From Dehalococcoidia bacterium (GTDB lineage Bacteria > Chloroflexota > Dehalococcoidia > Lucifugimonadales > Australimonadaceae): 64,000 nucleotides of DNA. The stretch covers positions 2,020,339 through 2,084,338 of the forward strand of contig OZ220477.1 in the NCBI GenBank assembly GCA_965116015.1, given 5' to 3'. Below the pieces are notes generated by a model. It saw nothing but the letters and a program-made list of their open reading frames with translations. It was not told the DNA's origin and ran no database searches. Below, piece after piece: positions 2,191-38,915 of this stretch. Each line of letters starts with the position of its first letter. The first letter of the stretch is position 1. A program made the position numbers and the translations under genes.

Positions 2191-2215
2191 TGGGGGCAGT
2201 ACGCAGAGTGAAGGA

Positions 2216-2419
2216 GTGATGAGAGTGAATTTCCTAGCGATATCGTGGGGCGTGATTCTCGTGGGCATATTCTTAGTGCTGGCATATGGGGTGTTCACTT
2301 TTCATAGTGTCGGAGTGCCTGCGGTTTTGACGCAACTGCTTGGTGCTTACCTCATGGTTCCTTTCCCGCCCGCTGCGGCTGTAGTCGCAGTAGAGACTCC
2401 TCGCAGGATTCGGATGTAA
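2216..2419 (+). CDS. Small hypothetical membrane protein (two hydrophobic helices)
   Basis: 67-aa ORF with two hydrophobic stretches. No recognisable motif. Confidence 0.3.
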   Translation: MMRVNFLAISWGVILVGIFLVLAYGVFTFHSVGVPAVLTQLLGAYLMVPFPPAAAVVAVETPRRIRM

Positions 2420-2431
2420 GGGAGAGCACTG

Positions 2432-3073
2432 ATGGCTAATCGATTTGCTGCGACATCCCCGGATTACCCGCTCAGCATAAGCAGACTCGAAACTCGCATC
2501 GGGTCAGATCCAGCCAAGAAGGGATGGTATGAGGTCTCCTCCAAGCACCAGCGAAGAGCTAATCAGTTCCTGAAAGCTACACGAGAGCTTGCGCAGAAGA
2601 GGATACTAACGGCTGGCGAGCGCATGCGCGTATCCAACAACGCGTGGGGAGCTCTGTCCCAAACCGTCAAGGCTATCGCGGCATTGCACGGATGGACTGT
2701 AGTGGGGCCTGAGTCAACAAAGAACTTTGTGAGAGAACTTGGGCGCCGAGCGAAAGACCCAAACATCAGTTCAATGATAGGCGGTATCTATGCGCTGCAC
2801 GAGAATTACTATGCGGATCACTCGCTTGAAGCGGAGGTGCGAGAGGCTCCCCACAATACCGCCGCATTGATAGACCGCCTTTGGGATGCTGCGCCAAGTC
2901 TCGAAAGCGGGAAGAAACCTGATGGCGCACGAGACATGCAGCAACGGCGGATTTTCAAGGAGAATCACACGCCTCACCAGAGAGCGAGGGTTCGCAATGA
3001 CCTGCGAGCGAAGAGTAAGCAAGAGACAAGGCGAGCCATACCGAGTGTGTTCCGCTCCCCACGAGTGCGGTAA
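2432..3073 (+). CDS. Hypothetical protein, possibly PaREP1/HEPN-like; distant paralog of 11796-12434
   Basis: 'AWGALSQTVKAIAALHGW ... LHENYYAD' parallels 'VWGVAAHAVKKIAAERGW ... AHSNYYDD' in the other copy. Both are ~212 aa with basic tails. Confidence 0.5.
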   Translation: MANRFAATSPDYPLSISRLETRIGSDPAKKGWYEVSSKHQRRANQFLKATRELAQKRILTAGERMRVSNNAWGALSQTVKAIAALHGWTVVGPESTKNFVRELGRRAKDPNISSMIGGIYALHENYYADHSLEAEVREAPHNTAALIDRLWDAAPSLESGKKPDGARDMQQRRIFKENHTPHQRARVRNDLRAKSKQETRRAIPSVFRSPRVR

Positions 3074-3104
3074 TTGCCAGAGAGCGAAAGGACAAGTGAT
3101 GTAA

Positions 3105-3434
3105 ATGGCAACACTAGAAGAAAATCTGACGACAGCAGCTGATGCCGCAAAGAACTTGGGAGATTGGCTCGACGATAGAGAGGTATATATAACGAAGGAT
3201 GTTCATCGAGCTATAGCAATGCTGCATTCTAGCCTGGTAGATGCAATGAATAAAGTACAATCAGGAGAGATGGAACAGGCACTAGATATTATGCGACCCA
3301 CGGAAGTTCTAGCTGGTGTAATCGAGTACGTTGTAATGTACTCCCCCGACGAAAGAATGGGTGAAGAAGTAAAAGACTTCGCTACCAGAGCATTCCTAAC
3401 TGCAAGTACAGCCAGACATCAACTGGGGTGGTAG
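3105..3434 (+). CDS. Hypothetical protein
   Basis: 109-aa ORF in a visibly AT-richer stretch. No motif recognised. Confidence 0.4.
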   Translation: MATLEENLTTAADAAKNLGDWLDDREVYITKDVHRAIAMLHSSLVDAMNKVQSGEMEQALDIMRPTEVLAGVIEYVVMYSPDERMGEEVKDFATRAFLTASTARHQLGW

Positions 3435-3455
3435 TTTCGACATCTGCCGCTCAAC

Positions 3456-3480
3456 GCGTGTCATTTGGGATATAATCCCC
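3456..3480. repeat. Transposon terminal inverted repeat, copy A (right-end orientation)
   Basis: GCGTGTCATTTGGGATATAATCCCC is identical to 12510-12534 and is the reverse complement of 5062-5086. Confidence 0.9.
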
Positions 3481-3534
3481 AAATAAAGATACCAAATGAA
3501 TTGCAGGGCTGGGAAGATCTTTCCATAGAAGAAC

Positions 3535-4491
3535 GTGCCCCAGCTCTATCAGAGTGCCTCGCGGAATATGGGATTCCTGACACTGAGTGGAGGGGAGATA
3601 CTAGTCCCGATTGATGGACAGCATCGTGCAAAAGCGCTTGGTTTCGCCATGACCGGCACTAATAGCGACGGGAAATCCATCCCAGGCATAAAGGGCAACA
3701 CCGCGCTTGCCGAAGACTACGCGCCTGTTATACTGATGCGATTCAATGGCCCAGGGGTGCGTCGAATATTCAACAAGATCAATCGATACGCCAGAGCCAC
3801 ATCAAAAGGACAGAACATCATCACGGACGACGATGACTCTCTCGCTGTCCTCACACGAGAATTGCTTGGCGAAGATGGCCTTATCCCTGCCAGACTAGTG
3901 CGGATTGACGCAAACACGCTCACCGCAAAAGCTCCTGAATTCACGACGCTCGCCACGTTTTACGAAGCCAATATAGCTATAGTACTTGGACTTGGACTAG
4001 AGGGTCCAGGCAAACCGCAAGGCATGAATGACGGGAAGAGAGAAGTTGCCACAGAAGCCGCACGACGTATATGGGAAACTCTTCTCCAGCGCGTTGACCT
4101 CTTCTCCGCGGCTTTGGCGGACACCACGGAGCGGGGAGACGGCGCGCGCATCAGAATTCGCGAAGAAACACTGCTCGGCAAACCCATTGGGCAACTAGCT
4201 CTGGTCCGCGCCTTTATGGAGATGCGCGAACGCTGTGCTGGGATTCACGAGACAACCCTTTGCGACCGCCTTAACCGCATCGACTGGAGCATCGACGCCG
4301 ATCTCTGGAGGGGCGTACTCGTGGCCCCGAATGGTCGCGTCCTCGCTGGCAAGACCACCGTAAACAGGGCAGCTATATTCATTGCCCACCTCGGCGGCGT
4401 CCAGCTAACAGCTGGAGAGCGCGAGACGCTCCTCGAAGCAATCCACGGCGAAGACTGGCGTAGCCACCAGCTTCCCAATCCCGTGGCGTAA
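3535..4491 (+). CDS. DGQHR-domain (DndB-like) protein, probably 5'-truncated or degenerate
   Basis: 'ILVPIDGQHRAKALGF' occurs only ~27 residues from the ORF start. In-frame stops lie at 3484 and 3526. The transposon end is 55 nt upstream. Confidence 0.6.
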   Translation: MPQLYQSASRNMGFLTLSGGEILVPIDGQHRAKALGFAMTGTNSDGKSIPGIKGNTALAEDYAPVILMRFNGPGVRRIFNKINRYARATSKGQNIITDDDDSLAVLTRELLGEDGLIPARLVRIDANTLTAKAPEFTTLATFYEANIAIVLGLGLEGPGKPQGMNDGKREVATEAARRIWETLLQRVDLFSAALADTTERGDGARIRIREETLLGKPIGQLALVRAFMEMRERCAGIHETTLCDRLNRIDWSIDADLWRGVLVAPNGRVLAGKTTVNRAAIFIAHLGGVQLTAGERETLLEAIHGEDWRSHQLPNPVA

Positions 4492-4549
4492 TCCCCGCCC
4501 GTGCTATCATTCTCCTAACCCGCTAACCCTTCCCTGAGAAACCCGCCGC

Positions 4550-5062
4550 ATGGTCCTCCCTCCTCCAAGTGGCTCTCCCTCCGCCGCGGCTTACTTATAC
4601 CGCTGCATTGCGTTAACCAGCCTTGCACTCGTCGCGCTTGCTCTAACGCTCGCTGCCTGCGCGCAGCTGACTCCCACGCCAACCCCCGCTCCTACCTCTA
4701 CCCTCACGCCCACGCTGCCCCCGACTCCTACGCTCTGGTGGAATTCGCTCCAAATTTCCACGCCCGAGTCGACTCCCGCGCCAACACCAACTCACACCAC
4801 CGCGCCGACTCCCACGCTTGCGGCAACCCCCACACCCGCGCCAACCGCTACGCCTACGCCGGTGCCGGACTTACCCCCTTCGCAAGCAGCCTTCACCTTT
4901 GACTTGAAAGAACTGGTGACTGCTTACGAACAAAACAAAGTGCTTGCCAATACGCGTTTGCGTTTCCTTGAAAATGGCTTGCAGCCTGTCACTACTAGTG
5001 GTTTCGTCGCGGACATCGAACAATTTTACTTCGAGCTTCATCCTGAAGAAGGCATGTTTTAG
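4550..5062 (+). pseudogene. 5' fragment of a lipoprotein/trypsin-like serine protease gene split by transposon insertion
   Basis: Signal peptide with lipobox 'LTLAAC', a Thr/Pro-rich linker, then the first half of an OB-fold-like domain. The ORF ends in a TAG created at the transposon junction. Confidence 0.8.
5054..5061. repeat. 8-bp target-site duplication ATGTTTTA (left)
   Basis: Identical direct copy at 12535-12542, immediately outside the opposite terminal repeat. Confidence 0.85.
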
Positions 5063-5119: not shown

Positions 5120-5797
5120 CTAGGGGTTGCTGGCTACAGCGTATTGGTTGTAGCCGAGGCCGCGAACGTGCGGCTCCCGGTGGAGCAGATTGCGCAGGCG
5201 CCCTAGCTCCGCTGCGTCCCAGCCCATCGCTTCCGCGACCGCCTCGTCCCACAGACGCCGCACCTCGCATTCCCCGTCGCGGAACTGCGGGACGATCGTC
5301 TCCCGCGTACGCTCCCAGCAGTCCGCAAGAACTTGGCGGATGCGGTCATCCTTGATGTCAGGAACCCTCAGATTGCCCGCCTCCGTCGTGCTGTAGATGG
5401 GGAAATTGATTTTCCTTCCAGGGTGTCGCATCAGCTGAAGGCGGCCTGCTGTTGAGTTGATGAATACGGCGAGCGCTTTCGCTTCGGTGGGCGATAACCC
5501 GCTTACCGGCATCCATCCGTTGCCGACATAGCACTCGTCGCTCGCGACTGCGGTCAGGCGTGCGGTTCCCGTGTCTTGCCCAGCCGTCATTAGCAGGTAT
5601 CCGGCCTTTAGCAGGATATTATCGACTTCGGGGTAGGAGCCGCCGCTGGCTCGCCGGATGGTCTCGTTGCGGTTCTTGGGGATCCAGTGCTGGTCGGGTT
5701 GGCTCTGTATCCTCGTTTGTCCATCAGCGCTTTTGGACTTCAAAATCGGGAAACTGCTGGAATCGTGGGCGGTTGCCCGTTTAAAAGAACCGCGCAA
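5120..5797 (-). CDS. Target-recognition-domain-like module, in frame with the upstream Type ISP ORF
   Basis: 225 aa with 'AKALAVFINSTAGRLQLM', the xLNS-type motif seen in methylase specificity domains. Same reading frame as 5816-10075, separated by TAG plus 6 codons. Confidence 0.55.
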   Translation of the reverse strand: MRGSFKRATAHDSSSFPILKSKSADGQTRIQSQPDQHWIPKNRNETIRRASGGSYPEVDNILLKAGYLLMTAGQDTGTARLTAVASDECYVGNGWMPVSGLSPTEAKALAVFINSTAGRLQLMRHPGRKINFPIYSTTEAGNLRVPDIKDDRIRQVLADCWERTRETIVPQFRDGECEVRRLWDEAVAEAMGWDAAELGRLRNLLHREPHVRGLGYNQYAVASNP

Positions 5798-5839
5798 AAG
5801 GCGGCCTGTCTCATCCTAATGAGACAGGCCGCCTTTTGC
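5794..5839 (-). other. Perfect 20-bp-stem hairpin with the Type ISP stop codon in its 6-nt loop
   Basis: Arm 5794-5813 pairs perfectly with 5820-5839. The TAG (5816-5818) lies in the loop. On the minus strand the hairpin is followed by CGCGGTTCTTTTAAA. Confidence 0.85.
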
Positions 5840-8800
5840 CATAGGCTGCAAACCTGCATCGTTGGCGAATCCAAAAGCGGCTTCAGCTAGCTCAGGAGAG
5901 CGCCAGACTGCTGGAGTCCAATCACCATCCTCGATGCGCTCCGCTGGCCACTCAGAGACCTCGCCCCAGCCATGCTCTAGGAGACCGCCTTCGCAGCGTG
6001 TAAGGCAATCGTGCAAGTCCGCTGCTTCATTATTGTCGGATGGCCACCTGTCGAGTTGAATGAATCGAGTGGGGGCCTGATGCTCGCCGCGCCTCTTGGC
6101 AACGATGATGCTCTCGTTAATCTTGACGTGCTGGCTGAGATTGATCTGTCCGGGCAAGTGGCAAGTGAGAACGTCGCTAATGTGGTAGCGCTGGGCTAGC
6201 GTACGCCGTGTAACCGATGCAGACGTTGCTGTCATGGCAATGGTTGGGTGGACCATCGCGAGAACGCTGTGCGATGAGTCCAAGCACTTATCCGCCAGAG
6301 CCACGAACAAGGGCGCTATCGAGTTTTTATCAGCGAAATCTCCCATATCCCTGTCGTTACGGACGAGAGTTTCCTCCATGGTGTCGGCTCGCGACCGCAA
6401 TGCCTGCTGCATTTCTCTAGGGAACTTTTCGCCCATCTTGGCGCGATTAGTGAACGGCGGATTCATAATGACAATGCGGGCGTCTTTGGCGGCGTCCACG
6501 GCGTCTTCCAGTTCGACATCGTCGCGGGGGTCCCACACCTGCTTCGACTTGATGGCCTCGTCCGGCAAGTCCAATTCGCCGACTCTGGGGAGAAGCTCCC
6601 TTTGGCCTAGCAGCTCCAGCGTGCCGGTGAACACCCTTGCGGAGTCATGCGGGGACGGCCCGTAGGGCATCAGGCGCAGCCCCATCCGCCGGTAGCGAAT
6701 CTCGTGGTTGCCCGCCGTCAGCTGCGACGCCGCCAATTGCAGCGACACAGGGTTGATGTCGAGTCCCTTGATAGTGTCCTCGACGGCGAGCTTCTGCAAC
6801 GCGGCTAGCTTCTCCTCGCTGGCGCCCTGCGCTCTGGCGCGGCGCTTCATCTCGGCGAGCATAGCCGCCAGCAGCGTTCCGCTGCCGCAAGCCAGGTCGA
6901 CAATCTTGTGCGCCTTCCAGACTTCAGGGTCGCTCCAGTCCACGTCGCCGCAGGCGTCGAGGGTAAGGCTTGCGGCGATGAACGCCGCCGTTGGCCGCGT
7001 GAAGAACGCCCCGTCGCTCGCCTGATTCCCCATCACGCGGTTGAAGAGCGGCCCTGCGTGGTCAGCGCCCATATCAGCGTAGGTTTCGGCGATGCGCTCC
7101 GCCTCCGCCGCGATGTGCCACAGCGCCCGCTCCAGCCCCGCCAGCTTTCCCGTGTCCTCGGCAGCCTGAATGGCCTTGATCGCAGGATCTAGCACTGCCT
7201 TGAAGTCGCGGCTCATAATCTCGTTCCATTCCCGAAGGAGCCGCCGGACGACGTTGACATCGTTCTTGACGCTCTCCAGGGGGCTTACGCCGGAGATCCA
7301 GCGTCCGCTGGCGATGCGCTGGTGGAGCATTGCGGCGTTCATCATCAGCAGCGCGGCGATAGTGCAGCCGTCGGCCTGCTTGTTGCGGCTCTCCGTCTTC
7401 AGGTTGTCGAGTTGGAAGTGGGCGTCCAGTGCGTTCGACAGGCGGTCTTCGCGCAGATGCCGCGCCGCCTCCCCGACGCCCGCTTCGAGGATGTTCAGAT
7501 CGCGCATCACCCGATTCGTGCGCAACCCCGACTTGGAGAGCAAGTTCACGATGATGGCGTCAGTGAGGTTTGGTGAGGGTGCGGGAACTGATGAGCAGTG
7601 TTGCTTCTCCGCTCCGGCGAGTAAATCGAGTAAGCGCTGAGCGTTGCTCTCTGCGACATCCTCGGTAGTACGCTTGACGCGAGGCGGCAAGCGTATGCCG
7701 GCGTCTTCGTTGATCATTTTCTTGGCTTTGTCGATAGTCTTCTCGATGTTCAACTGTCCCGGTGCGCCGTCCGGTCCGGGATTGTCGCGACCGACGCTGT
7801 CAATGCGCGTCTCGACTTCTCCGCCGTCGTTCACCTTCGCGGTGATGATGGCCGTCGGAATCAGCGGCGTGTCTTCGGAGCCGTAGTCGGTTTCTGGATC
7901 TTCGGTTTCCCGCGCATAATCGTCAAGAGGCGTGAGAGTGCCGGGATAAGTCTGCTGCCCCTTCGCGATGGCCTCGGCGGTTTCTTGCGCTTCCCCTGGC
8001 TTGCCAGCGTGCACCCAAGTCTGGATTTTCGTTTCCGGAGTCGCAGTAGCGACGACGGTGGCTTCCTCTTCCGGTTCGGGAGGCAGGTACACCTTCATCA
8101 AGTGCCTTATCTCGTCTTCAATGCGGCTGTCGTGAGCGCGCAGCGCCCGCAGGATCTGCCCTAGCTCCTGCCATCCGTCTTGCGGCCCGCTGGCGGCCAA
8201 CCACTGCTCGGCTTCCGCATTTGGGGGAAAGACGATAGGGCAGATGATGTACCCCATCTCCTTGCCTTGCGCGCTGCGCATAACGCGCCCCACGGCCTGT
8301 ATGACGTCGATGGGACTCTTGCGCGGCTCCAGGAACGCCACCGCGCTGAGGGACGGCGCGTCCGTGCCCTCCCCAAAGATGCCAACGTTGACGATGCCGT
8401 GCGGGTTCTCCCTGTCAGCGTTCGCCAGCCTACTCTTGGCGTTCTCCCGAGCGGCGACGTTGCTGGTCGCGTCCAAGTGCTCCAGCGTGTACTGCGCTGC
8501 GGCGGGCGCTCGCGGAGTTGCCTCTAGCCGTCCCCTCAGCCACTCCCTTACCTTGTCGGTCTGGAGGTGCCTCGCCATATTCTTCGATTTCTCGACGGTG
8601 TTCATAAAGGCGATGCAAGACTTGATGGACACGCTGTCGACCTCGTTGCTCTGCGTGGCTCCGCCCATTGCCAGCGTGAAAGCCAGCCCGCGGAGAAAGT
8701 GCGTGGTCGTGAGCGACTGCCGCCCCTCGTTCGTGGCGTCCGAAGCCAGCGCGTTTGCCGCTTCGTACGCTTCGAGGTCGTTTACTCCGAGGGCGATGAT

Positions 8801-10075
8801 GCGGTAGTCGGAGAGCCACCCGTTGCTGACCGCCTCCTTATAGCTTCTACGGTACAGCTCAACTCCGAAGACGGTTGCGTCGTCCATACTCCGCACGACC
8901 CAATCCTCTTGCTTGTGGCGCTGCTGCTCTTTGGCGTCGTACACGCGCGGCGTAGCGGTCTGATAGACGCGGTATGTGGCGGGGAATCTGCCGTTGTCGT
9001 GGCAGATGGTGAAGTCGCGCAGCTGCTTCTCCAACTTCGGCATGCGGCGCAGACCCGCCGTGCGGTGCGCTTCGTCGGCGATGAGGACAGCGGCGACGGC
9101 TCCGGACGCGACCAGCGCTTCGCCTATCTTGTGGCTGCTCTGATAGGTCCCGAAGATGACGTTGACTCGTTCGCTGCTCTGCCCTGCGCGTATCCAGTCG
9201 GCAATCTCCCCTGAGTCGGTGGTTACCTTGCCTTTCACCTCAGACGCGCTGACGTAGCTTGCGTCCAGCGTGGGGTCGGCGGCGCGGTCCAGCGAACTCT
9301 CCTTAGGGGCGACGGTTGGATCGGAGCACACGGCGAGCGCACAGATGGACTTGCGAGCGTTCTGCAAGTACTCGCGCCGTATCTGGGCGACAAGCGCTAT
9401 GGAAGGGCATAGCACGACAGCCAGCTCTCCCTGCTGGGTCAGCTCCTCGATGATGCGCAGGGAGATGCGGGTCTTGCCCGTGCCGCAAGGAAGGACGATC
9501 TTCCCGCGAGCCTGTCCTGCCGGCAGCCCGCCGCTATCCGACTGTACGTGCTCCTTGAGGGCGTTGACGCTCTCCTCCACGGCCTCGTTCTGCATGCACT
9601 GCAGAGTTTGGCGGGGCGGGTTGCCGTCGTCGTCGCGCGCGGCGTCCGGGTCGCAGTGAGGGCAGTACTCAGCCTGCTCGACGAGCGGCTGGGCGAGAAG
9701 GTCGGCGTGGATGTTGACGAGCTTGAGTTGCTGCGCGGCTACAGACAAGCCCTGCTTGGCTTCGCTGCTCAGCTGATTGGCGCCGTTGGTGACAAGCCAG
9801 CGCTCCGCCCAAATCGGCGCGCTGGCGGCTGCGGTGAACTTGTCCAGCTCGCCTTTGTGGATATCGTCGCCCTTGCCAGAGGCATCAAGCTTCCGCGCCT
9901 TGCACTGGATGGCTATGTACTGATCGCCGCGTTTGGCGACGGCATCGATGCCGACATCCGTTCTGGTGGATTCTGGGAAACGCCCTGTCCGTTCGGGCCA
10001 GTCGCCCCAGAGCCAGCACTCCTCGATGTCCCAGTCCTTGATGTGCGGCCCTGCCTCGACGACGAGGTTCTCCAA
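5816..10075 (-). CDS. Type ISP-like restriction-modification enzyme (Mrr-like nuclease + SF2 helicase + gamma-class N6-A methyltransferase)
   Basis: PD-(D/E)xK-like 'DVGIDAV...IAIQCK'. Helicase motifs 'CGTGKT', 'IADEAHR', 'QTATP', 'QAVGRVMR'. Methylase motifs 'DLACGSGTLL' and 'IMNPPFT'. TTG start. Confidence 0.8.
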   Translation of the reverse strand: MENLVVEAGPHIKDWDIEECWLWGDWPERTGRFPESTRTDVGIDAVAKRGDQYIAIQCKARKLDASGKGDDIHKGELDKFTAAASAPIWAERWLVTNGANQLSSEAKQGLSVAAQQLKLVNIHADLLAQPLVEQAEYCPHCDPDAARDDDGNPPRQTLQCMQNEAVEESVNALKEHVQSDSGGLPAGQARGKIVLPCGTGKTRISLRIIEELTQQGELAVVLCPSIALVAQIRREYLQNARKSICALAVCSDPTVAPKESSLDRAADPTLDASYVSASEVKGKVTTDSGEIADWIRAGQSSERVNVIFGTYQSSHKIGEALVASGAVAAVLIADEAHRTAGLRRMPKLEKQLRDFTICHDNGRFPATYRVYQTATPRVYDAKEQQRHKQEDWVVRSMDDATVFGVELYRRSYKEAVSNGWLSDYRIIALGVNDLEAYEAANALASDATNEGRQSLTTTHFLRGLAFTLAMGGATQSNEVDSVSIKSCIAFMNTVEKSKNMARHLQTDKVREWLRGRLEATPRAPAAAQYTLEHLDATSNVAARENAKSRLANADRENPHGIVNVGIFGEGTDAPSLSAVAFLEPRKSPIDVIQAVGRVMRSAQGKEMGYIICPIVFPPNAEAEQWLAASGPQDGWQELGQILRALRAHDSRIEDEIRHLMKVYLPPEPEEEATVVATATPETKIQTWVHAGKPGEAQETAEAIAKGQQTYPGTLTPLDDYARETEDPETDYGSEDTPLIPTAIITAKVNDGGEVETRIDSVGRDNPGPDGAPGQLNIEKTIDKAKKMINEDAGIRLPPRVKRTTEDVAESNAQRLLDLLAGAEKQHCSSVPAPSPNLTDAIIVNLLSKSGLRTNRVMRDLNILEAGVGEAARHLREDRLSNALDAHFQLDNLKTESRNKQADGCTIAALLMMNAAMLHQRIASGRWISGVSPLESVKNDVNVVRRLLREWNEIMSRDFKAVLDPAIKAIQAAEDTGKLAGLERALWHIAAEAERIAETYADMGADHAGPLFNRVMGNQASDGAFFTRPTAAFIAASLTLDACGDVDWSDPEVWKAHKIVDLACGSGTLLAAMLAEMKRRARAQGASEEKLAALQKLAVEDTIKGLDINPVSLQLAASQLTAGNHEIRYRRMGLRLMPYGPSPHDSARVFTGTLELLGQRELLPRVGELDLPDEAIKSKQVWDPRDDVELEDAVDAAKDARIVIMNPPFTNRAKMGEKFPREMQQALRSRADTMEETLVRNDRDMGDFADKNSIAPLFVALADKCLDSSHSVLAMVHPTIAMTATSASVTRRTLAQRYHISDVLTCHLPGQINLSQHVKINESIIVAKRRGEHQAPTRFIQLDRWPSDNNEAADLHDCLTRCEGGLLEHGWGEVSEWPAERIEDGDWTPAVWRSPELAEAAFGFANDAGLQPMAKGGLSH

Positions 10076-31851: not shown

Positions 31852-31938
31852 TTCCCAGGCCCCTGCTTCTCCCCGTCGTTCCCGCTCCCCTCGGTCCCCC
31901 GCTCAAGCGACTGCCTCCCACAGGAGAGCTCTCCTTGA

Positions 31939-34900
31939 CTAGCCCTCTAGCCCGTCAGAACAGACAGTGCGGACCACCTGCGGCTCGCGCGCCTGTGGAC
32001 GATCGGAATCCTCGGGCGGAGCGAGACGGAAACGCGCGCGCAGCGCCTCCAGCCGTGTGCGGAGCTCTGAACCAGCCAATCCCTGCTCCCGAATCTTGCT
32101 CAACTCCTGCTCCGCCTGCTGCGGCAGATCCCCCGTAAAGATGCGCCGGAGCGCGTCGATGCGCCCCGCATCGACCGCCTCCCCCGCCTCTCGCAGCGCG
32201 GCATTGAGCCGCCCCGACACGTAGCGCCGCGCTCGCGAGTCATGGGATCTCCTCGCCCTCCCCAAGCGACGTTGAAACTCCCGCTTGAACGCCTCGAACG
32301 CAGCCGTCACCCGCTCGTTCGTATCTTCCGGCAGCGGCTCCGCCGGAGCGTCCGGCTCGCACCTCGCCGCCTCCACGAACTGCGCCGGAGTGATAGCCCG
32401 CGGCTGAAGATCAGACCCAACTGCGTAGCAACCGTTCACCCCTCGCGATCCTCCCGCGCCCAGCAGAACGATAGTCTCCGAAGGCTTGGGAGCCTCGAAC
32501 GGCGACGGCGCCATCGTCGCCGGCGACATCAGCGGCGCCTGCTCCCCGTCGACCGTCGCCCCGTTCCGCGCGTAGTTGTCGTCGCCGAACTCCGACCGCT
32601 CCGGACGCGCCCTGAGCGCCGACCGTATCCCGTCGGGAAGCTCCGTGATCGTTCGCCAAAGCTCAGGATCGCCCTCCTTGATTCGCTGCAACTCCGCCGT
32701 CGCATGCTGATGCGCTGTCACCTCGCCCAGCCCATCCTCCGCATCCGGCATCTCCTTCCTGTCGTAGATGCAATAGAGCGCATCGTCGTTAAGATGCTCC
32801 CCCTCAGACAGCAGCTGGTTATCCAGCCCTATGGCGTCGTGAAACGACTGAATGCGGCGCCCTACCCGCTCCGTCAAGGATAGACCCGCATCCACCTCCA
32901 CATCCGGCCACATATTGTGCAACCGGATGACAGAATGCCGCGTTCCGATGCGGTCCACCCGCCCGAAACGCTGGATGAGACGCACCGGATTCCAGTGCAG
33001 ATCGTAATTCAGCGCCCGGGCGCAGTCCTGCAAGTTCTGACCCTCCGAAACAATGTCCGTGGCCAGCAGAATTCTGATCTCCGGCCCCGGACGCTTCTCA
33101 TTTCGCGACAGGTTCGACCCCGGAGAGAACCGCTTGACCACGCTCTCCGCCTGATGTCGCACGCTCCCCGTCAGCATCGCGATTCCCGGATCGCCCTCCC
33201 CTGGATTCAGCTCCCGATACAGATACGAAATCGTCGTCTCCGCCTCCGAGAAGATCAGAATCTTCTCGCCCTTCACCTCCTCCCGCTCCAGGAAATCCCG
33301 CAGCGCCCGCAGCTTGTCGTCGTCCTCCGCCGTGATGCCGCTCACCCGCGACAGAACGCCGCTCAGAACCCCGTGATCCGCATCGAGGTCGTCCATCCAC
33401 CTGACAACATCGAAGTCGGCGACATCATGAACCAGCTTGGCGCTCGCATTCCCCTGCCCTCGCCGCCGCTCCTCTTCCTGCGACAGCATCTCCAGGAGAT
33501 CCCCCGCCTCGAAAGCCTGACCCGCCAGCATCCGCGCCGCCGTATCGCCGATAGGAACGTACCCGCCCCCCAGCGCCGACCGGAAGTTCCGATTGCTCTG
33601 ACTCAACGCCCTCAGCGTGGAGCGGAACGCCTCGATGCTCGACTCCAACCGCTTGAGTAACAGCACGTTCATCAGCGCGGCGATGCGGTGCGCCGCCCTG
33701 AACAAATCCCGGTACTCGTCCTTGCCCCTCGCTTCCGCCCTCACGTAATCAGTAGCCCGGTACCGCGCCCCCTTGTGCTGGCGCAGTCCTCCCACTAGCT
33801 CCTCCAGAGAGCCCGCCTTCGCGTAGACCCTATCGAGACGATACGCAACATTGTCCAGAACCGGCTCCGGAAAAACGACCGGCTCCCCCGCCACCATTGC
33901 CGTATCACCGTACAGCCGCTCGATATCCTTGCGCCTCCGCCGTATGAACACAGGAGCCAGCGCCTGCGCGATATCCGCCTTCGGAACCGATGGCGCGGCC
34001 GGCGGCAGCGGAGGCGCCGTCGCCGCCTTGCTCGCTTCCCACGCCCTGAACTCCCGCTCGTACTCCTCGAACTCAGCCCGATGTTGCTGCCACCTCTGAG
34101 CGTTGTTGAAATACGCGCTCAGGCTCGCCGGCTCGATATTCAGCCCGTGCTCCATGTCGTCGAGAAAGAGCGTCAGCTGCCGGTAAATGTCCATCGGCCC
34201 CAGATTCTGCGGCGTCGCGCTGAGCAAGATTACCTTGTGGTCGCCAGACTCTAGGTAGCTGCGCAACCCGATGGACCGCCGATTCACGTTGCGGAAGTTA
34301 TGAGCCTCGTCCACCAGCACCGCCCCCCTGTTGGGATACGCCTGCCCCAGAACGATTCCCTGCCCCGCCCTCTCAGACTCCACATACCGCCCCAACTCCT
34401 CGTCGAACTCAGCGTCCGGAGGCGGCGCGACGACGCTGTGCGAAACAACCGCCGCTCCCAGCGCGAACCGCTCGTTGAACGACTCCCACATCGACTTCAG
34501 CCCCGCCGGACACAGAATCAGCGGCGGCCCGTCGTTCGGATAGCTCGCCCGCAGCTGCCGCAGCAGCTCCGCCCCCACATACGTCTTCCCCAGCCCAACC
34601 ACATCGCCGATATAAGCTCCCCCGTGCTCCTCAATCATCCGCAGCCCCTGACGCACCGCATCCATCTGAAAATTCGCCAGCTCCTCCGTGCGCTGAGGCC
34701 GAAGCTCGACATCCGGAACATCTGCGTAGTACAGCTCGTACAGCCCCTTCAGATAAACGTGATACGGAGGCGTAGCCGCCAGCGGCCACGACCGCGCCAG
34801 CGCCGCCTCGAGCGCCTCGCTGATGTCCTGCGAATCCTTCCACAGCGTCTCGAACCACTCGCGCAGAGCCTCCATCTCCGCATCCCCAGTCACGCGAACA

Positions 34901-35439
34901 TTCAGCTCCGTATTCCCCGAGAACCCCGCAAGCGTCATATTCGACGACCCCACCACCGCCGCTCCCGGCTCCGCATGATTCTCGTACCAGCACAGGTACG
35001 CCTTCGCGTGCAGCGGACTCCGAAGATACGCCCTAACCTCCGCCTTCCCCGACGCAATCATATCGCGCAGCGAGCGCACCGCCCGCTCCGAATCAGCATC
35101 CTGTGGAAGAGACGCCACCCCGGCCGCGACGTGCTCCACCGACTCCCGAGCCGCGCTCTCCCGCTCCCGACGCTGCACGATGCTGTCCGCCTCCAGTTGC
35201 GCCCGCAGCGCCTCGGCCTGCTGCGCCCCGAGCGCCGCCTCCTCCAGCGTCGGACGATCCGACCGCCCCACAAGAATGCGAACCTTCTCCAGCCGCTCGA
35301 AACTACCCGCCACCTTTTGGAACCCCGACATAAACAGATAGCCCACCGCGATATCCGCCCGCGCCGAACTCCCAAGCATCTCCTGCAGCCGCGTCAGCAG
35401 ATTAGGCTCAGTCGTCGCATGCAGAATGTTCATAGCCAT
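31939..35439 (-). CDS. PLD-family nuclease domain fused to an SNF2-family helicase, with a long uncharacterised C-terminal region
   Basis: Single HKD-type motif 'LHAKAYL...VGSSNMT' at the N-terminus. SNF2 motifs 'GLGKT', 'VLVDEAHNFRN', 'LLSATPQN', 'SEGQNLQD...WNPVRLIQRFGRVDRIG'. Confidence 0.8.
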   Translation of the reverse strand: MAMNILHATTEPNLLTRLQEMLGSSARADIAVGYLFMSGFQKVAGSFERLEKVRILVGRSDRPTLEEAALGAQQAEALRAQLEADSIVQRRERESAARESVEHVAAGVASLPQDADSERAVRSLRDMIASGKAEVRAYLRSPLHAKAYLCWYENHAEPGAAVVGSSNMTLAGFSGNTELNVRVTGDAEMEALREWFETLWKDSQDISEALEAALARSWPLAATPPYHVYLKGLYELYYADVPDVELRPQRTEELANFQMDAVRQGLRMIEEHGGAYIGDVVGLGKTYVGAELLRQLRASYPNDGPPLILCPAGLKSMWESFNERFALGAAVVSHSVVAPPPDAEFDEELGRYVESERAGQGIVLGQAYPNRGAVLVDEAHNFRNVNRRSIGLRSYLESGDHKVILLSATPQNLGPMDIYRQLTLFLDDMEHGLNIEPASLSAYFNNAQRWQQHRAEFEEYEREFRAWEASKAATAPPLPPAAPSVPKADIAQALAPVFIRRRRKDIERLYGDTAMVAGEPVVFPEPVLDNVAYRLDRVYAKAGSLEELVGGLRQHKGARYRATDYVRAEARGKDEYRDLFRAAHRIAALMNVLLLKRLESSIEAFRSTLRALSQSNRNFRSALGGGYVPIGDTAARMLAGQAFEAGDLLEMLSQEEERRRGQGNASAKLVHDVADFDVVRWMDDLDADHGVLSGVLSRVSGITAEDDDKLRALRDFLEREEVKGEKILIFSEAETTISYLYRELNPGEGDPGIAMLTGSVRHQAESVVKRFSPGSNLSRNEKRPGPEIRILLATDIVSEGQNLQDCARALNYDLHWNPVRLIQRFGRVDRIGTRHSVIRLHNMWPDVEVDAGLSLTERVGRRIQSFHDAIGLDNQLLSEGEHLNDDALYCIYDRKEMPDAEDGLGEVTAHQHATAELQRIKEGDPELWRTITELPDGIRSALRARPERSEFGDDNYARNGATVDGEQAPLMSPATMAPSPFEAPKPSETIVLLGAGGSRGVNGCYAVGSDLQPRAITPAQFVEAARCEPDAPAEPLPEDTNERVTAAFEAFKREFQRRLGRARRSHDSRARRYVSGRLNAALREAGEAVDAGRIDALRRIFTGDLPQQAEQELSKIREQGLAGSELRTRLEALRARFRLAPPEDSDRPQAREPQVVRTVCSDGLEG

Positions 35440-35451
35440 TCTCCAGTGCCA

Positions 35452-36276
35452 TCACACACTCCGCGCCCGGCGCAGACGATCCCCCACCAGCTTCGCGACC
35501 CCCTCGTACACCGCATCGCGCTCCCCCGACGTCAACCCCAGCGCGTCGAACACCGCGTCGTCCACCTCACGCCGCGCAGCCGACGGCGCAAGCACATCCC
35601 ACTCCGTGCTCTCGAACACTCCCGCGTCTACCTCCGGCAATAGCTCAGGGTTGACTATGGAAAGATTCCTTGTCTCGTAAGTTTGAATCTCTAGCACTCC
35701 TTCTCCGAAATTCGATCTGCTTTCGATATTCACCATCAGTTGGAACAGTGTTGAGTTGATGGCTTGGCATAGCTGTATTGAAGAAACACTGTCGGTTGCA
35801 GACATCACCTGGAAATTGTCAGTGAACAGAGCCCCCGATACTGCCAAGAAAGCCCGCGCGACCGTATTCACGAATTTGTTCATTCCCAGATGAACATTGT
35901 CCCGTTTTCCCAAATCGTACCATCGATGTCGAGACATGATTCCCTTCGTGAGATTAAATCCTTTCCGTTCGCCCCATTCGATGTATTTCAGCGCACCGGA
36001 GCCCCTCAGATTGCCTTTTGCCATATGGCACATGAACAGACGCTTCGGCAACGCCGCCGGATTCACGACAATGTTGCGCGATTCCCGAGGCGTGCTCATA
36101 ACAGGACGGCAGTACTCCGGCTCGATGCCGAACTCAGCAATGCGCTCCGATGTCAAACAGAAGAAAGCATTAGCCCCGGTCAAGACACCGAGCCGCACAG
36201 TCGCCACATCGCCTAGCCTCGCGAGCCTGTCACCGTACTTCGCCCGGATATGATGATAGATATCCGGCGCGCGCAA
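35452..36276 (-). CDS. C-terminal specificity (TaqI_C/TRD-like) part of the methyltransferase, in frame with 36421-38613
   Basis: 'LGDVATVRLGVLTGANAFF' and 'LCQAINSTLFQLM'. The frame is open and continuous up to the TAA at 36421-36423. TTG at 36276 is preceded by GGGGAGGA. Confidence 0.65.
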   Translation of the reverse strand: MRAPDIYHHIRAKYGDRLARLGDVATVRLGVLTGANAFFCLTSERIAEFGIEPEYCRPVMSTPRESRNIVVNPAALPKRLFMCHMAKGNLRGSGALKYIEWGERKGFNLTKGIMSRHRWYDLGKRDNVHLGMNKFVNTVARAFLAVSGALFTDNFQVMSATDSVSSIQLCQAINSTLFQLMVNIESRSNFGEGVLEIQTYETRNLSIVNPELLPEVDAGVFESTEWDVLAPSAARREVDDAVFDALGLTSGERDAVYEGVAKLVGDRLRRARSV

Positions 36277-36393
36277 GTACTTTCCTCCCCACTTATCGCC
36301 GACATACTTGCCGTCGCTCGTTCCCGCGGCAATCAGCTCATCGCGGCTCTTGCGTATCTCGCGCCGTTGAGTTGGGTCAGAAACCGCAATCGC

Positions 36394-36445
36394 GAATTGG
36401 GCGCGTAGCGACGAGTCTCTTTACTCGTCGCTACGCGCCCAATTC
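36394..36445 (-). other. Perfect 23-bp-stem hairpin spanning the methyltransferase stop codon
   Basis: Arm 36394-36416 pairs perfectly with 36423-36445. The loop is 36417-36422. The TAA (36421-36423) sits at the loop/stem junction. Confidence 0.85.
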
Positions 36446-38613
36446 CTGCTGACAACACTGATTATCGTATTGATATCCGCGGTAGCGAACTGCCGCTCCA
36501 CCGCGCTCTCGTAGATTGCTTGCACATGCGCGTTCGTCAGCAAATACTCCTGCAATTTCGCTCCGTAACTCACATCCAGCCAGCTGTTGGAGCACACGAA
36601 TACGTGCATACCGCCCTTGCGCAGCAGCTGCAATCCCCGCGCATAGAAATAGCAGTACAGGTCGGAGCGCGCGACAACAGCATCCCCGTACTGCTTGACT
36701 AGCGCTGCCTTATCAAGCTTGGCCAGACCGGCCTTCTCCGAGCCGATAAGCTCCTGCCGAACATACGGCGGATTAGCGATTGCCACGTCGAACCCCCCGC
36801 GTCCAGCGAACACCTCGGCGAACTCCACCCTCCAGTCCACCACCCCGCACTTACGCTCCAACGCTCCCATAGCCGCGCGCAACTCGCCCTTCAGCGACTC
36901 AATCTCACCGCGCAGCCACTGCTTGCGTCCGCCATCGGATTCGCGCAAGTACTCCCCCTTCAGCTCCCCCAGCCGCCGGACGCGCTCCACATCCTGCCCC
37001 AGCGTGCCCTGAACCTCCACTCCCGCGCTCGGATCCGGCCCGCCCAAGCTGTCCCCCTGCACAATCTTGAGATCAAGGTTGGGCAACGGCTCCGGCGCAT
37101 CCCCGTCATGCTCAATCGCCAGCGACAACCACAACCGCAGCATAGCAATGTTGACCGCAAACTCGTCGATATCCACGCCGTAGAGATTGCGCTGGATAAT
37201 TTCCAGCTTCAGTTCGTACAGGCTCTTGGCGTCCACGCCGGCGTTGTAGAGCGCCGACTGCAACTCGATAAGCTCCTGCATCATCCCCAGCAGATACGCG
37301 CCGGAGCCGCATGCCGGATCCGCCACAGTTACTTGCGCCAGCGCGTCCGCAATCCTCCGCGCCTGCGCCATCCCCAGCCCATCAGTGTCGTGAGCGTTCA
37401 CGAACCGCTCAACCGCGTCGTCGTCGAGCTCAGGAACCTGTCCCTTCAGGTAGCCCTTGAGCGCCTCCCCGCACATAAACGACACCACCTGCCGCGGCGT
37501 GTAGTACGCCCCCGACGAATGTCGCCCCGTAACCAGCTCCTCGAACACCTTCCCCAGCATCTCCGGGTCAACCGCAACCTCAATATCGAATGGCGTAGAC
37601 TCCATAACCGTGAAGTTGAAGCGATCGAAGAGCTCGCTCAGAACGCGCTCGATAATCGCGTCCGGCACAACGACGCCGTCGACCTTGTCCGGATCAGTCC
37701 TCTCGAACAGTCCGCCATTGAGAAAAGGAACATGCCCAATGAGGGGATCCAATCCCCTAGTCAAGTTCCTCGAATCCGGATTGTTAAGTCCATTGAAGAA
37801 CAGCGGCTGAAGCCTCGACTTGTAGAAATTGCTATCCCCCGACGCTTGGTGTGCATTCCACAGAGCGTTGAGATAGTCGTAGTCCCTCCGCCTCTCCTTG
37901 CCCTCGCCCTCCTCAAGGTGGAGCCAGCCCTTGCGCTGCAAGAAATACACGAACATCAAACGGTTGAAGAGAGTGAGAACGAACATCCGCCGGTCGTTGT
38001 CGTCGTTTGGGAACCCTGAAATACTAGCCTCCGCCGCAGCGAATATCCTCTTGTACGCCTCGAAGAATTCCCGCGTAACCGGCTCCACATCGAAAGCCTG
38101 CCGCAAAGCAATGCGGATGTTCCCGCTATCACTGTAACGCCAGTAGATTTTGGACACCTGCTGAACAGCAGTGCGTCGCGCCAGATCGCGTTCCACAGTC
38201 ATCCGCCTCAGCGTGGGCCTCGCGCCCTCGAAGCTCGGCAACACAAGCTGCAAACGCTCCCCCCGCTCATCCACGACCGCCAGCAGCAAGTCGTCCCCTA
38301 AATCCTTGGCGAGCGCCCGCGCGGCGGCGACTACCGCATCCTTGCGAACGCGCCCCGATTTCGACGCCGGCAAGCGGACAAGCGCAACCTGAACGCCGTC
38401 CAGCTCCGCTATGCGCTCTGCCGCGTCGGGGAGCCGCATCCCGGCGGCGGCTCCTGCCAGGCTCACCTCCCCGTTAGCGGCGTGGAAGTCCAGCGCCTCC
38501 ACGAACAACCTGCGCACAGCAGTGCCAAGACTCTCCCGCGACGCCGAAGAGGCGGCGGCAAAGATCTCCTCGATATGCCTCTCCACATCTCGCGCGTCAT
38601 CCAGTCTTTGCAT
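36421..38613 (-). CDS. N6-adenine DNA methyltransferase, MmeI/PglX (Eco57I)-like, truncated by an in-frame stop
   Basis: 'FVYFLQRKGW', 'VPFLNGGLFE', motif I 'ADPACGSGAYLL', motif IV 'IANPPYV'. Confidence 0.8.
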   Translation of the reverse strand: MQRLDDARDVERHIEEIFAAASSASRESLGTAVRRLFVEALDFHAANGEVSLAGAAAGMRLPDAAERIAELDGVQVALVRLPASKSGRVRKDAVVAAARALAKDLGDDLLLAVVDERGERLQLVLPSFEGARPTLRRMTVERDLARRTAVQQVSKIYWRYSDSGNIRIALRQAFDVEPVTREFFEAYKRIFAAAEASISGFPNDDNDRRMFVLTLFNRLMFVYFLQRKGWLHLEEGEGKERRRDYDYLNALWNAHQASGDSNFYKSRLQPLFFNGLNNPDSRNLTRGLDPLIGHVPFLNGGLFERTDPDKVDGVVVPDAIIERVLSELFDRFNFTVMESTPFDIEVAVDPEMLGKVFEELVTGRHSSGAYYTPRQVVSFMCGEALKGYLKGQVPELDDDAVERFVNAHDTDGLGMAQARRIADALAQVTVADPACGSGAYLLGMMQELIELQSALYNAGVDAKSLYELKLEIIQRNLYGVDIDEFAVNIAMLRLWLSLAIEHDGDAPEPLPNLDLKIVQGDSLGGPDPSAGVEVQGTLGQDVERVRRLGELKGEYLRESDGGRKQWLRGEIESLKGELRAAMGALERKCGVVDWRVEFAEVFAGRGGFDVAIANPPYVRQELIGSEKAGLAKLDKAALVKQYGDAVVARSDLYCYFYARGLQLLRKGGMHVFVCSNSWLDVSYGAKLQEYLLTNAHVQAIYESAVERQFATADINTIISVVSRNWARSDE

Positions 38614-38838
38614 AGCTAGTCCTGTCCTCTTTCGGCGTGACTAGCGCCATTCTAGATGCGAGGGGAATTACGCGCCAGCAGCGAGCGCTATAGCCGCCGG
38701 CGAATCCCCGTCGTTCCCGCGAACCTCAACGCCGCATCCCCCGTTGCCCGCCTGTCGCTCCCGCGAAGAGTGAACTCCCGGGCATCTGCGTGGCGCGCAG
38801 GCGGCGGCGGGCAACAGCGTAAAACCGAAAAGACGAAA

Positions 38839-38915
38839 TGGTGGGCGGTAGAGGACTCGAACCTCTGACCTCCGCGATGTCAACGCGACGCTCTAACCAA
38901 CTGAGCTAACCGCCC
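38839..38915 (-). tRNA. tRNA-Val (anticodon GAC)
   Basis: Reverse complement reads GGGCGGT..TCGCG-TTGACAT-CGCGG..GGTTCGAGTCC..ACCGCCCACCA. Confidence 0.85.

Follow-up and report, generated by a model that had tools for sequence, protein, structure and literature searches.

The Module and Its Genes

A two-gene module resembling a restriction-modification (R-M) system lies beside a tRNA gene in the genome of a Dehalococcoidia bacterium (Chloroflexota; assembly GCA_965116015.1, contig OZ220477.1, positions 2,020,339 to 2,084,338 of the forward strand). This whole stretch of 64,000 nucleotides is called the window here, and positions are those of the window. On the minus strand, in the 5′ to 3′ direction, the order is tRNA-Val(GAC), a spacer of 225 nt, the reading frame of a predicted adenine methylase with its target-recognition domain (TRD), a short gap, and an open reading frame (ORF) for a helicase-nuclease, in which a PLD-type nuclease domain is fused to an SNF2-type ATPase. 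The gap is 12 nt to the first ATG of the helicase and 18 nt to the second. The original prediction, made by a model from the sequence alone, had described two ORFs on one strand with 12-nt spacing: strand and spacing stand, but the methylase is not a single ORF, as its frame is broken by a stop codon in the middle of a perfect hairpin. The features of the module are:

38613-35452, minus strand: methylase reading frame, interrupted by one in-frame TAA
36421-38613, minus strand: N-terminal part of the methylase, an ORF of 730 amino acids (aa) with an N-terminal alpha/beta domain, a helical spacer and a gamma-class N6-adenine methyltransferase domain, ending in TAA (Pfam, structure model, Foldseek)
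36394-36445, no strand assigned: perfect 23-bp inverted repeat with a 6-nt loop, on the plus strand GAATTGGGCGCGTAGCGACGAGT-CTCTTT-ACTCGTCGCTACGCGCCCAATTC
35452-36420, minus strand: TRD of the M_Eco57I_C type, 322 codons plus TGA, in the same frame as the N-terminal part (C-terminal halves of the PADLOC MTase_II models)
36274-36288, minus strand: first canonical start after the stop, TTG at 36274-36276, with GGAGG at 36284-36288, 7 nt before it; inside a conserved GDKWGGKY-L motif
31939-35439, minus strand: PLD(HKD)-SNF2 helicase-nuclease gene, intact, 1166 aa (ORF list, Pfam, PADLOC, Foldseek)
34831-35256, minus strand: single PLD/HKD nuclease domain, residues 62-203, the sole Pfam stretch of PLDc_2/RE_NgoFVII, with HAKAYL...GSSN at 144-167
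32944-34680, minus strand: SNF2-type ATPase core, comprising an N-lobe (GLGKT, DEAH), a long insertion and a C-lobe (QRFGR) (Pfam; similarity to RapA, ALC1, SWR1 and Snf2)
31942-32802, minus strand: C-terminal region without a family match in profile searches, about residues 880-1166 (about 290 aa)
38839-38915, minus strand: tRNA-Val(GAC) (ARAGORN; Rfam tRNA, 70.8 bits), 225 nt upstream of the methylase and in the same orientation

A Stop Codon in the Loop of a Perfect Hairpin

The unusual feature of the module is a hairpin with a stop codon in its loop, placed inside a reading frame that is under purifying selection. The stop, TAA at 36421-36423, is the only one in the methylase frame, and it separates the catalytic part of 730 aa from the TRD of 322 codons. 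It is made of the last base of an arm and two bases of the loop. The form present in the sequenced populations could not yield a full-length methylase-TRD protein by ordinary translation. The hairpin is the longest in the window; as single-stranded DNA it folds with -32.5 kcal/mol (z -9.5).

The hairpin falls exactly in the linker, variable in sequence, that joins the catalytic domain to the TRD. At this site the intact homologues have ...VIRKxxxADDDxTRFVSLRxEF... and the window has ...VVSRNWARSDE*RDSSLRAQF..., with no net insertion. By this comparison the right arm is ancestral sequence, coding for (V)SLRAQF, and the left arm is its reverse complement, to judge from the alignment written over a stretch of linker that varies freely among homologues; this arrangement reads as a signature of template switching at an inverted repeat. 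Template switching of this kind is known to homogenise the arms of inverted repeats and to invert the spacer between them (PMC8604942, PMC8794818).

Several simpler explanations of the hairpin were rejected. An assembly artefact was ruled out, as contigs of two independent public sequencing runs (about 220x and 85x) are identical here, with zero differences. The hairpin is not a repeated element of the REP or MITE kind, as the arm occurs only here in the window and the protein alignment has no net insertion; nor is it an intrinsic terminator, since it has no T-tail and was not flagged by a terminator scan; nor is it a known RNA family, as the search of Rfam returned only a sub-threshold match to a miRNA. 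No comparable hairpin was found across 1.1 Mb of related loci, and none in the methylase genes of 16 related loci; a scan of a metagenome collection for the exact hairpin pattern gave no match.

In a homologue that is 34% identical, the same linker between methylase and TRD holds a REP-like perfect palindrome, TGTAGGGGCAATT-CATG-AATTGCCCCTACA (locus L075, 763-792), which is read in frame (NVGAIHELPLQ). The same type of element is intergenic in other loci.

A Diverged Relative with the Same Hairpin and Frame

A third run contains a relative of the window (here X3), and stretches of it were rebuilt from the listed differences and compared with the window. Gene order is as in the window (solute-binding protein, helicase, methylase, tRNA-Val, sortase), and synonymous divergence between the two is about 0.30. 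The outer 18 bp of both hairpin arms are unchanged in the relative. Four of the five inner pairs have changed, on both sides, and the pairing is still perfect (CGAGT/ACTCG has become TACGA/TCGTA). Two positions of the loop differ, which places an in-frame TGA one codon later than the TAA of the window (...RNWARSDTK*VVSLRAQF...).

The rebuilt stretches (36206-36529, 35452-35787 and 36655-36960 in window positions) are open except for the stop in the loop, and the indels of X3 elsewhere are, among those listed, frame-preserving. The codon comparisons are:

Last 111 codons of the TRD: open, ending at the same stop; 22 synonymous and 12 non-synonymous codon changes; pS 0.30, pN 0.06; P about 5e-6 against neutrality
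39 codons from the hairpin to the TTG at 36276: 12 differences where the synonymous rate predicts 35 (P 4e-7); pN/pS 0.32; no indels
Catalytic stretch around NPPY: 9 synonymous and 10 non-synonymous changes; one in-frame deletion of 3 nt; NPPY kept

By these figures, translation has continued on either side of the stop during most of the period since the two lineages separated, which is not what a pseudogene carried over from the common ancestor would show. Part of the TRD has followed a different course: 180 nt (window 35788-35969) are replaced in the relative by an unrelated sequence of equal length, and the stretch of TRD beside this swap (35969-36205) is far more diverged than the remainder of the module, with 97 differences in the 561 nt aligned at 35969-36529, compared with 5.7% in the helicase. 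The G+C content (GC) is 0.647 in the helicase, equal to that of the flanks, 0.606 in the methylase core and 0.562 in the TRD, and the low value of the TRD is consistent with TRD exchange.

The Two Proteins

The methylase is predicted to be a gamma-class N6-adenine methyltransferase of the PglX/MmeI/Eco57I type. It has Pfam matches to Eco57I (1e-34) and MmeI_Mtase, and the VPFLNGGLFE and NPPY architecture named in the original prediction is located at residues 295-304 and 614-617, with motif I (DPACGSG) at 432-438. A model of the first 730 residues (pLDDT 76, pTM 0.71) has BrxX/PglX, MmeI, DrdV and CamA as its top Foldseek matches. Beyond the stop, the TRD shares 60-68% identity with the C-terminus of intact methylases, whose frame continues through the junction. 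The nuclease domain MmeI_N gave no Pfam match in the methylase, and the PADLOC IIG profiles leave residues 1-160 uncovered; residues 1-145 model as an alpha/beta domain, in which no D...ExK motif is conserved in an alignment of 32 sequences.

The helicase-nuclease has 1166 aa from its first ATG; the public database call starts at 35433 and gives 1164 aa. The motif HxK...GSxN is present in one copy only (residues 144-167). A lone HKD motif implies that two protein copies must dimerise to complete the active site, which is the case for Nuc and BfiI. All SNF2 motifs are intact (GLGKT at 282, DEAH at 377, SATP at 407, QRFGR at 823; Pfam Helicase_C at 709-832), further Pfam matches are SNF2-rel_dom and ResIII, and the nearest solved proteins by sequence are RapA, ALC1/CHD1L, SWR1 and Snf2. 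The best PADLOC model is C3a139 'HKD+Snf2' (2e-50, residues 14-878). The C-terminal region is conserved to the last residues across the Chloroflexota clade, and most of the distant homologues cease to align near residue 940. The description in the original prediction, i.e., a single-HKD PLD domain fused to a complete SNF2 ATPase with about 300 aa of unassigned C-terminus, is thereby borne out.

Pairing of the Two Genes across Genomes

The original prediction made its case depend on the same two genes occurring together in other genomes, and they do. Full-length relatives of the helicase (61-75% identity) are found in Dehalococcoidia and other Chloroflexota, where 16 of 18 informative loci have a methylase core on the helicase's strand and upstream of it; the same order is seen in four more loci reached via other proteins (L021, L022, L024 and L025). 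In most of the paired Chloroflexota loci the methylase is one ORF of 1000-1085 aa. More distant homologues of the helicase occur on plasmids (26.9-31.4% identity by tblastn, covering PLD through SNF2), and in all seven that were examined (Thermococcus, Anabaena, Rhodococcus, Thermus, Pelobacter, Haloferax and Synechocystis; bacteria and archaea from six phyla) a large DNA methyltransferase adjoins on the same strand. The three of these methylases that were scanned are all of the Eco57I or MmeI type, and that of Rhodococcus has every MmeI domain except the nuclease domain. The pairing of methylase and helicase is not due to chance. The PLD-SNF2 family as a whole comprises 1402 clusters at 50% identity (exhaustive search, E<=1e-30), mostly of 1040-1150 aa.

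The two genes are 0.4 to 7.6 kb apart in the Chloroflexota loci, and the space between them is a slot for cargo: VapBC/PIN, ParE, AbiEii, AAA_15/21 ATPases, DUF3800, tyrosine recombinases and insertion sequences (IS) (loci L001-L026, L027 and L033). A toxin-antitoxin (TA) or AbiE pair separates the genes in two of the seven plasmid cases, and the slot recurs in Chloroflexota, Thermococcus and Synechocystis. A conserved third gene was ruled out, as all-against-all comparison of the intervening ORFs gave only small patchy families. This recurrent slot for TA and abortive-infection cargo bears on how defence islands are assembled.

In three loci, inserts of 0.7-1.9 kb are enclosed by direct copies of the beginning of the helicase gene (87-187 nt, with 62-89% identity to the reference copy of each locus), as if cassettes came in through recombination inside this 5′ end:

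L011, 3715-8003: copies of the helicase 5′ end around an insert
L018, 2542-3334: copies of the helicase 5′ end around an insert
L019, 10000-11124: copies of the helicase 5′ end around an insert

Four further loci have orphan TRD cassettes, starting ...RAPDIYH..., downstream of the methylase core, and in these loci elements of the IS630-like and IS66 kinds are inserted 15-20 codons after the position of the window hairpin:

L023, 6001-7020: orphan TRD cassette
L024, 6001-6990: orphan TRD cassette
L025, 9207-10346: orphan TRD cassette
L026, 9247-10386: orphan TRD cassette

Truncated methylases of about 739 aa were considered as evidence of a hot spot and set aside, as both that were examined are due to IS insertions 15-20 codons downstream; the sampling was biased, the query having been the 730-aa part.

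A Possible Switch by Inversion of the Loop

In the proposed working of the module, the methylase with its TRD would read a short asymmetric site and mark host DNA with N6-methyladenine (m6A). Unmarked DNA would engage the SNF2 motor, which would translocate along it, and two PLD domains would then join into one active site, so that cutting would follow dimerisation or collision. This mode of cutting would be functionally like that of Type ISP and Type III enzymes and of NgoAVII/CglI.

Because the palindrome is perfect, reverse-complementing the 6-nt loop amounts to reverse-complementing the entire palindrome. Derived from the two sequences, this flip removes the stop in both: the window would read ...SDESLYSSLRAQF... 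and the relative ...SDTTHFVSLRAQF.... The flipped relative matches the TRFVSLR of homologues at T, F and V, and in the flipped window T is conservatively replaced by S and F by Y. Since the hairpin has been kept perfect in a diverged relative, and purifying selection acts on both sides of the stop, we infer that the stop is reversible. The 6-nt loop would be inverted by template switching or by recombination between the arms, with loss of the stop, and the hairpin would act as an ON/OFF (phase-variation) switch for the module, the sequenced state being OFF. Homogenisation of the arms would be a by-product of the inversion, hence the perfect arms of both lineages.

A two-gene, ATP-dependent R-M-like module whose methylase frame is broken by a reversible stop in a hairpin loop is the reading that we favour, and it is probably, if not by a wide measure, correct. 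The further proposal that the 52-nt palindrome is a recombinase-free phase switch, toggling the whole module, and that the same process keeps the arms complementary over species-level divergence, is possible rather than probable. To our knowledge, control of a coding sequence by such a 'minute hairpin inversion' has not been described for a bacterial defence gene. Programmed variation of a similar methylase beside a PLD+SNF gene has been reported (PMC9881135), but it consists of recombinase-type inversions of TRD segments, whereas the window has a loop of 6 nt. If the hairpin is a switch, it would represent a minimal form of phase variation that needs no recombinase, and one that standard annotation misses by calling two ORFs or a pseudogene.

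A number of observations weigh against reversibility, or against the module as a restriction system. All three sampled populations are in the stop state, and the contigs of the three runs hold no flipped (ON) copy, although assembler contigs drop rare variants. In both lineages the flipped forms are without the invariant Arg of the TRF motif. The TGA of the relative was created by two loop changes, so the stop itself could be under selection. The family is biochemically uncharacterised, and the structure model of the helicase is of low confidence (pLDDT 58, from a shallow alignment), with Foldseek placing it among Snf2 remodellers. Finally, if the nuclease acted independently of the methylase, as an unsegregatable mutant in Synechocystis may suggest, a cell with an intact nuclease and its methylase OFF should not survive.

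The last point can be set beside the pair on the Synechocystis plasmid pSYSX. There, slr6050 (1100 aa) is the methylase M.Ssp6803IV, with GA(m6A)GGC as its tentative motif. Its mutant failed to segregate, and the gene was therefore called essential (PMC6105098); the authors left the neighbouring helicase-related gene undiscussed. An unsegregatable methylase gene beside a nuclease-motor gene is as predicted for an active R-M pair. If the nuclease of that pair acts without the methylase protein, the case is also hard to square with an OFF methylase next to an intact nuclease in the window: either the nuclease depends on the methylase-TRD to find its target, like Type III and Type ISP enzymes, or the enzyme of the window is not truly off.

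Other Explanations of the Stop

The alternative that survives best is a permanent, functional split, in which the 730-aa catalytic part and a separately translated TRD are two subunits and the hairpin is a gene boundary or a regulatory structure. Two-subunit parallels exist in the M and S subunits of Type I enzymes and the A and B subunits of BcgI. In its favour, the loop holds a stop in both diverged lineages, in one of them a TGA created by two loop changes, and the TRD is under strong purifying selection. The TTG at 36276 has GGAGG 7 nt before it, and two homologues have neither feature at that position (GGCGGC or GGCGGA, and CTG instead); moreover, TRD-only ORFs occur in related loci. However, this first canonical start falls after the nearly invariant GDKWGGKY motif, and the 39 codons before it evolve as coding sequence, yet in a split gene they would be untranslated unless a non-canonical start were used just after the hairpin. 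The TRD-only ORFs elsewhere are due to IS or cargo insertions and frameshifts, and a split leaves a perfect 23-bp palindrome without a reason. For these points we consider a permanent split unlikely, if worth keeping in mind.

Somewhat less credible still is a dead methylase, i.e., a template-switch mutation in a quasi-palindrome that made the stop, so that the module is a decaying remnant and there is no switch. Many relatives have indeed decayed, through IS630-like and IS66 insertions, frameshifts and truncated helicases, and only copies in the stop state have been seen. Template switching can produce multinucleotide changes such as these in a single step (PMC8604942). Decay is hard to reconcile with the state of the rest of the module. 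In the window, nothing interrupts either half of the methylase or the 1166-aa helicase, and the rebuilt X3 stretches are likewise open but for the loop stop, the listed indels elsewhere being frame-preserving. A pN/pS of about 0.2 in the TRD, at a synonymous divergence of 0.30, is unexpected for an ancestral pseudogene, and recent death would need two independent hits in the same 6 nt.

Recoding of the RNA, in which ribosomes read through the stop or bypass the hairpin and so give the full-length protein from the existing sequence, is very improbable. In its favour are a frame kept and constrained on both sides of the stop, GCG codons 45 nt apart flanking the stop in both lineages, and a stop within a stable stem-loop, reminiscent of bypassing in T4 gene 60. 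Against it, the lineages differ in the identity of the stop (TAA and TGA) and, by one codon, in its position; neither a known recoding signal nor an Rfam family is matched, and the gene family is without precedent for it.

Flanks, Repeats and the Island Setting

Both flanks of the module are housekeeping genes: on the helicase side a release factor, tRNA-Pro and a solute-binding protein, and on the tRNA side tRNA-Val, a sortase, L19 and PFK. The tRNA-Val was found where the original prediction had put it, with its 3′ end towards the module, and the island-type site that this suggested is supported by relatives that lie downstream of other tRNA genes. In four other loci a tRNA gene precedes the methylase by 0.2-1 kb and points the same way:

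L005, 4244-4320: tRNA-Arg
L016, 4927-5002: tRNA-Met
L022, 901-975: tRNA-Met
L026, 6731-6808: tRNA-Lys

This recurrent position suggests islands that target tRNA genes. The original prediction had seen neither an integrase nor an att repeat. The former statement holds, as the window contains no integrase; the latter does not, as an exact 16-nt direct repeat, TCCCCGTCGTTCCCGC, which has no further exact copies in the window, encloses exactly the two module genes (exact repeat search of the window):

31870-31885, plus strand: TCCCCGTCGTTCCCGC, copy past the helicase stop
38705-38720, plus strand: TCCCCGTCGTTCCCGC, copy between the methylase start and tRNA-Val

The repeat may be the remnant of an att site or a target duplication. 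In the relative, 38710-38753 is deleted, so that the copy on the tRNA side is partly gone. No joint linking 31870 to 38720, as in an empty or excised form of the island, was found in the contigs of the three runs.

The window has a second defence islet, with a dip in GC to 0.52-0.55 at 2000-5000. It includes a DndB-like ORF at 3535-4491 on the plus strand and, at 5816-10075 on the minus strand, an ORF of 1419 aa with Mrr-type nuclease, ResIII/DEAD and Helicase_C domains (PADLOC REase_MTase_IIG, 1e-98), which is Type ISP-like. At 5794-5839, where two minus-strand ORFs meet, there is a perfect hairpin of 21 bp with a loop of 4 nt and arms that begin GCAAAAGG and end CCTTTTGC. It reaches some 20 nt into each of the ORFs as listed and may serve as a bidirectional terminator.

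Comparison with Known Systems

The original prediction of an R-M-like pair, a PglX/MmeI-type methylase with a PLD-SNF2 fusion, without the partners of DISARM, BREX or Type I/III systems, is supported. The possibility that the module is a fragment or subtype of a catalogued system (class 1 DISARM, BREX, Hma/BR type 2), or a stand-alone Type IV PLD-helicase of the SauUSI kind with no relation to the methylase, carries very little weight. There are partial matches to models of DrmD, DrmMI, PglX, HmaA and PLD_Helicase, and the effector of BR type 2 is an HKD-Swi2/Snf2 protein (PMC12839542), but all curated scores are far below their cut-offs (for phospholipD_antiphage, 125 bits against 1100), and the strict pairing with an Eco57I/MmeI-type methylase across phyla argues against a Type IV enzyme. 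Neither the genes that flank the module nor the window's large ORFs include DrmA/DrmB, PglZ/BrxC or DUF499, and DUF3780 was not found nearby; with these partners absent and the scores below cut-off, membership of DISARM, BREX and Hma is rejected.

Class 1 DISARM (DrmA, DrmB, DrmC, DrmD and DrmMI) has the same kinds of domains, i.e., SNF2, PLD and adenine methylase, but the DrmA/DrmB (DUF1998) pair is absent here and PLD and SNF2 are fused. The statement that the parts are known from class 1 DISARM thus holds as a likeness of domains, whereas closer kinship does not: the DrmD model NF038317 scores 147.5 bits against a cut-off of 610. The closest solved methylase folds are those of BREX PglX/BrxX and of Type IIL MmeI/DrdV (Foldseek E 6e-11 to 4e-8; TM 0.42 for MmeI), which share the helical spacer of the VPFLNGGLFE type with the methylase of the module. 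PglZ and BrxC of BREX are absent, and the NCBIfam PglX models score 26-61 bits against cut-offs of 400-900 (61 bits against 500 for the BREX-1 model). Hma, or Type-2 BR, combines an HKD-Swi2/Snf2 effector with an N6 methylase and is proposed to act in an R-M-like manner (PMC12839542), but it requires a DUF499 ATPase, DUF3780 and a DUF1156-type methylase with an internal TRD, none of which is present here, where the methylase is of the Eco57I/MmeI_Mtase type; the HmaA model matches residues 562-843 only. NgoAVII/CglI and SauUSI likewise have a PLD-family nuclease tied to a superfamily 2 (SF2) ATPase, and Pfam RE_NgoFVII matches the PLD domain of the module. NgoAVII/CglI has separate R and N proteins and a C5 methylase, and SauUSI is modification-dependent, without a cognate methylase.

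The best functional analogy is Type ISP (LlaGI, LlaBIII). In Type ISP enzymes a nuclease, an SF2 translocase and a gamma-class adenine methylase with a TRD act at an asymmetric site, and cutting is expected on collision. Each is a single polypeptide, whose nuclease is of the Mrr/PD-(D/E)xK kind and whose helicase is of the RecA type; the module has two genes, a PLD nuclease and an SNF2 motor. Type III EcoP15I, Mod2Res1, is like the module in having two genes, recognition by the methylase and an ATP-dependent SF2 Res with a nuclease (PMC4490356), but its Mod is of the beta class with an inserted TRD, its Res has a C-terminal PD-(D/E)xK nuclease, and sequence kinship to the module is limited to the SF2 core.

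The kind of system to which the module belongs is already known from genome comparison, without a name or biochemistry, and the pair in the window is a further member of it. The original prediction had called the system poorly described; as a claim to an undescribed family this has to be withdrawn. Aravind and colleagues had pointed out R-M systems with fusions of HKD to SWI2/SNF2 (PMC3417536), a 'Type II RM CDS plus adjacent PLD+SNF CDS' was listed as a context of programmed inversion by Milman et al. 2023 (PMC9881135), and the PADLOC model C3a139 derives from a survey of type III CRISPR accessory genes (PMC6546367). In the defence catalogues searched, the PLD-SNF2 and methylase pair has no entry as a system. 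The family is a large one in bacteria and archaea, includes a plasmid of a model cyanobacterium and is still unnamed and biochemically undescribed, and a working description of the pair would add a further architecture of ATP-dependent restriction enzyme. With the other unnamed pairs of HKD-SNF2 protein and Eco57I/MmeI methylase, the module shares the two-protein architecture, the adjacency on one strand, the Pfam types of the methylase and, in many of them, TA/Abi cargo between the two genes. The Chloroflexota helicases differ from the distant pairs in an extra conserved C-terminal region of about 220 aa, and to this the copy in the window adds the hairpin and its stop.

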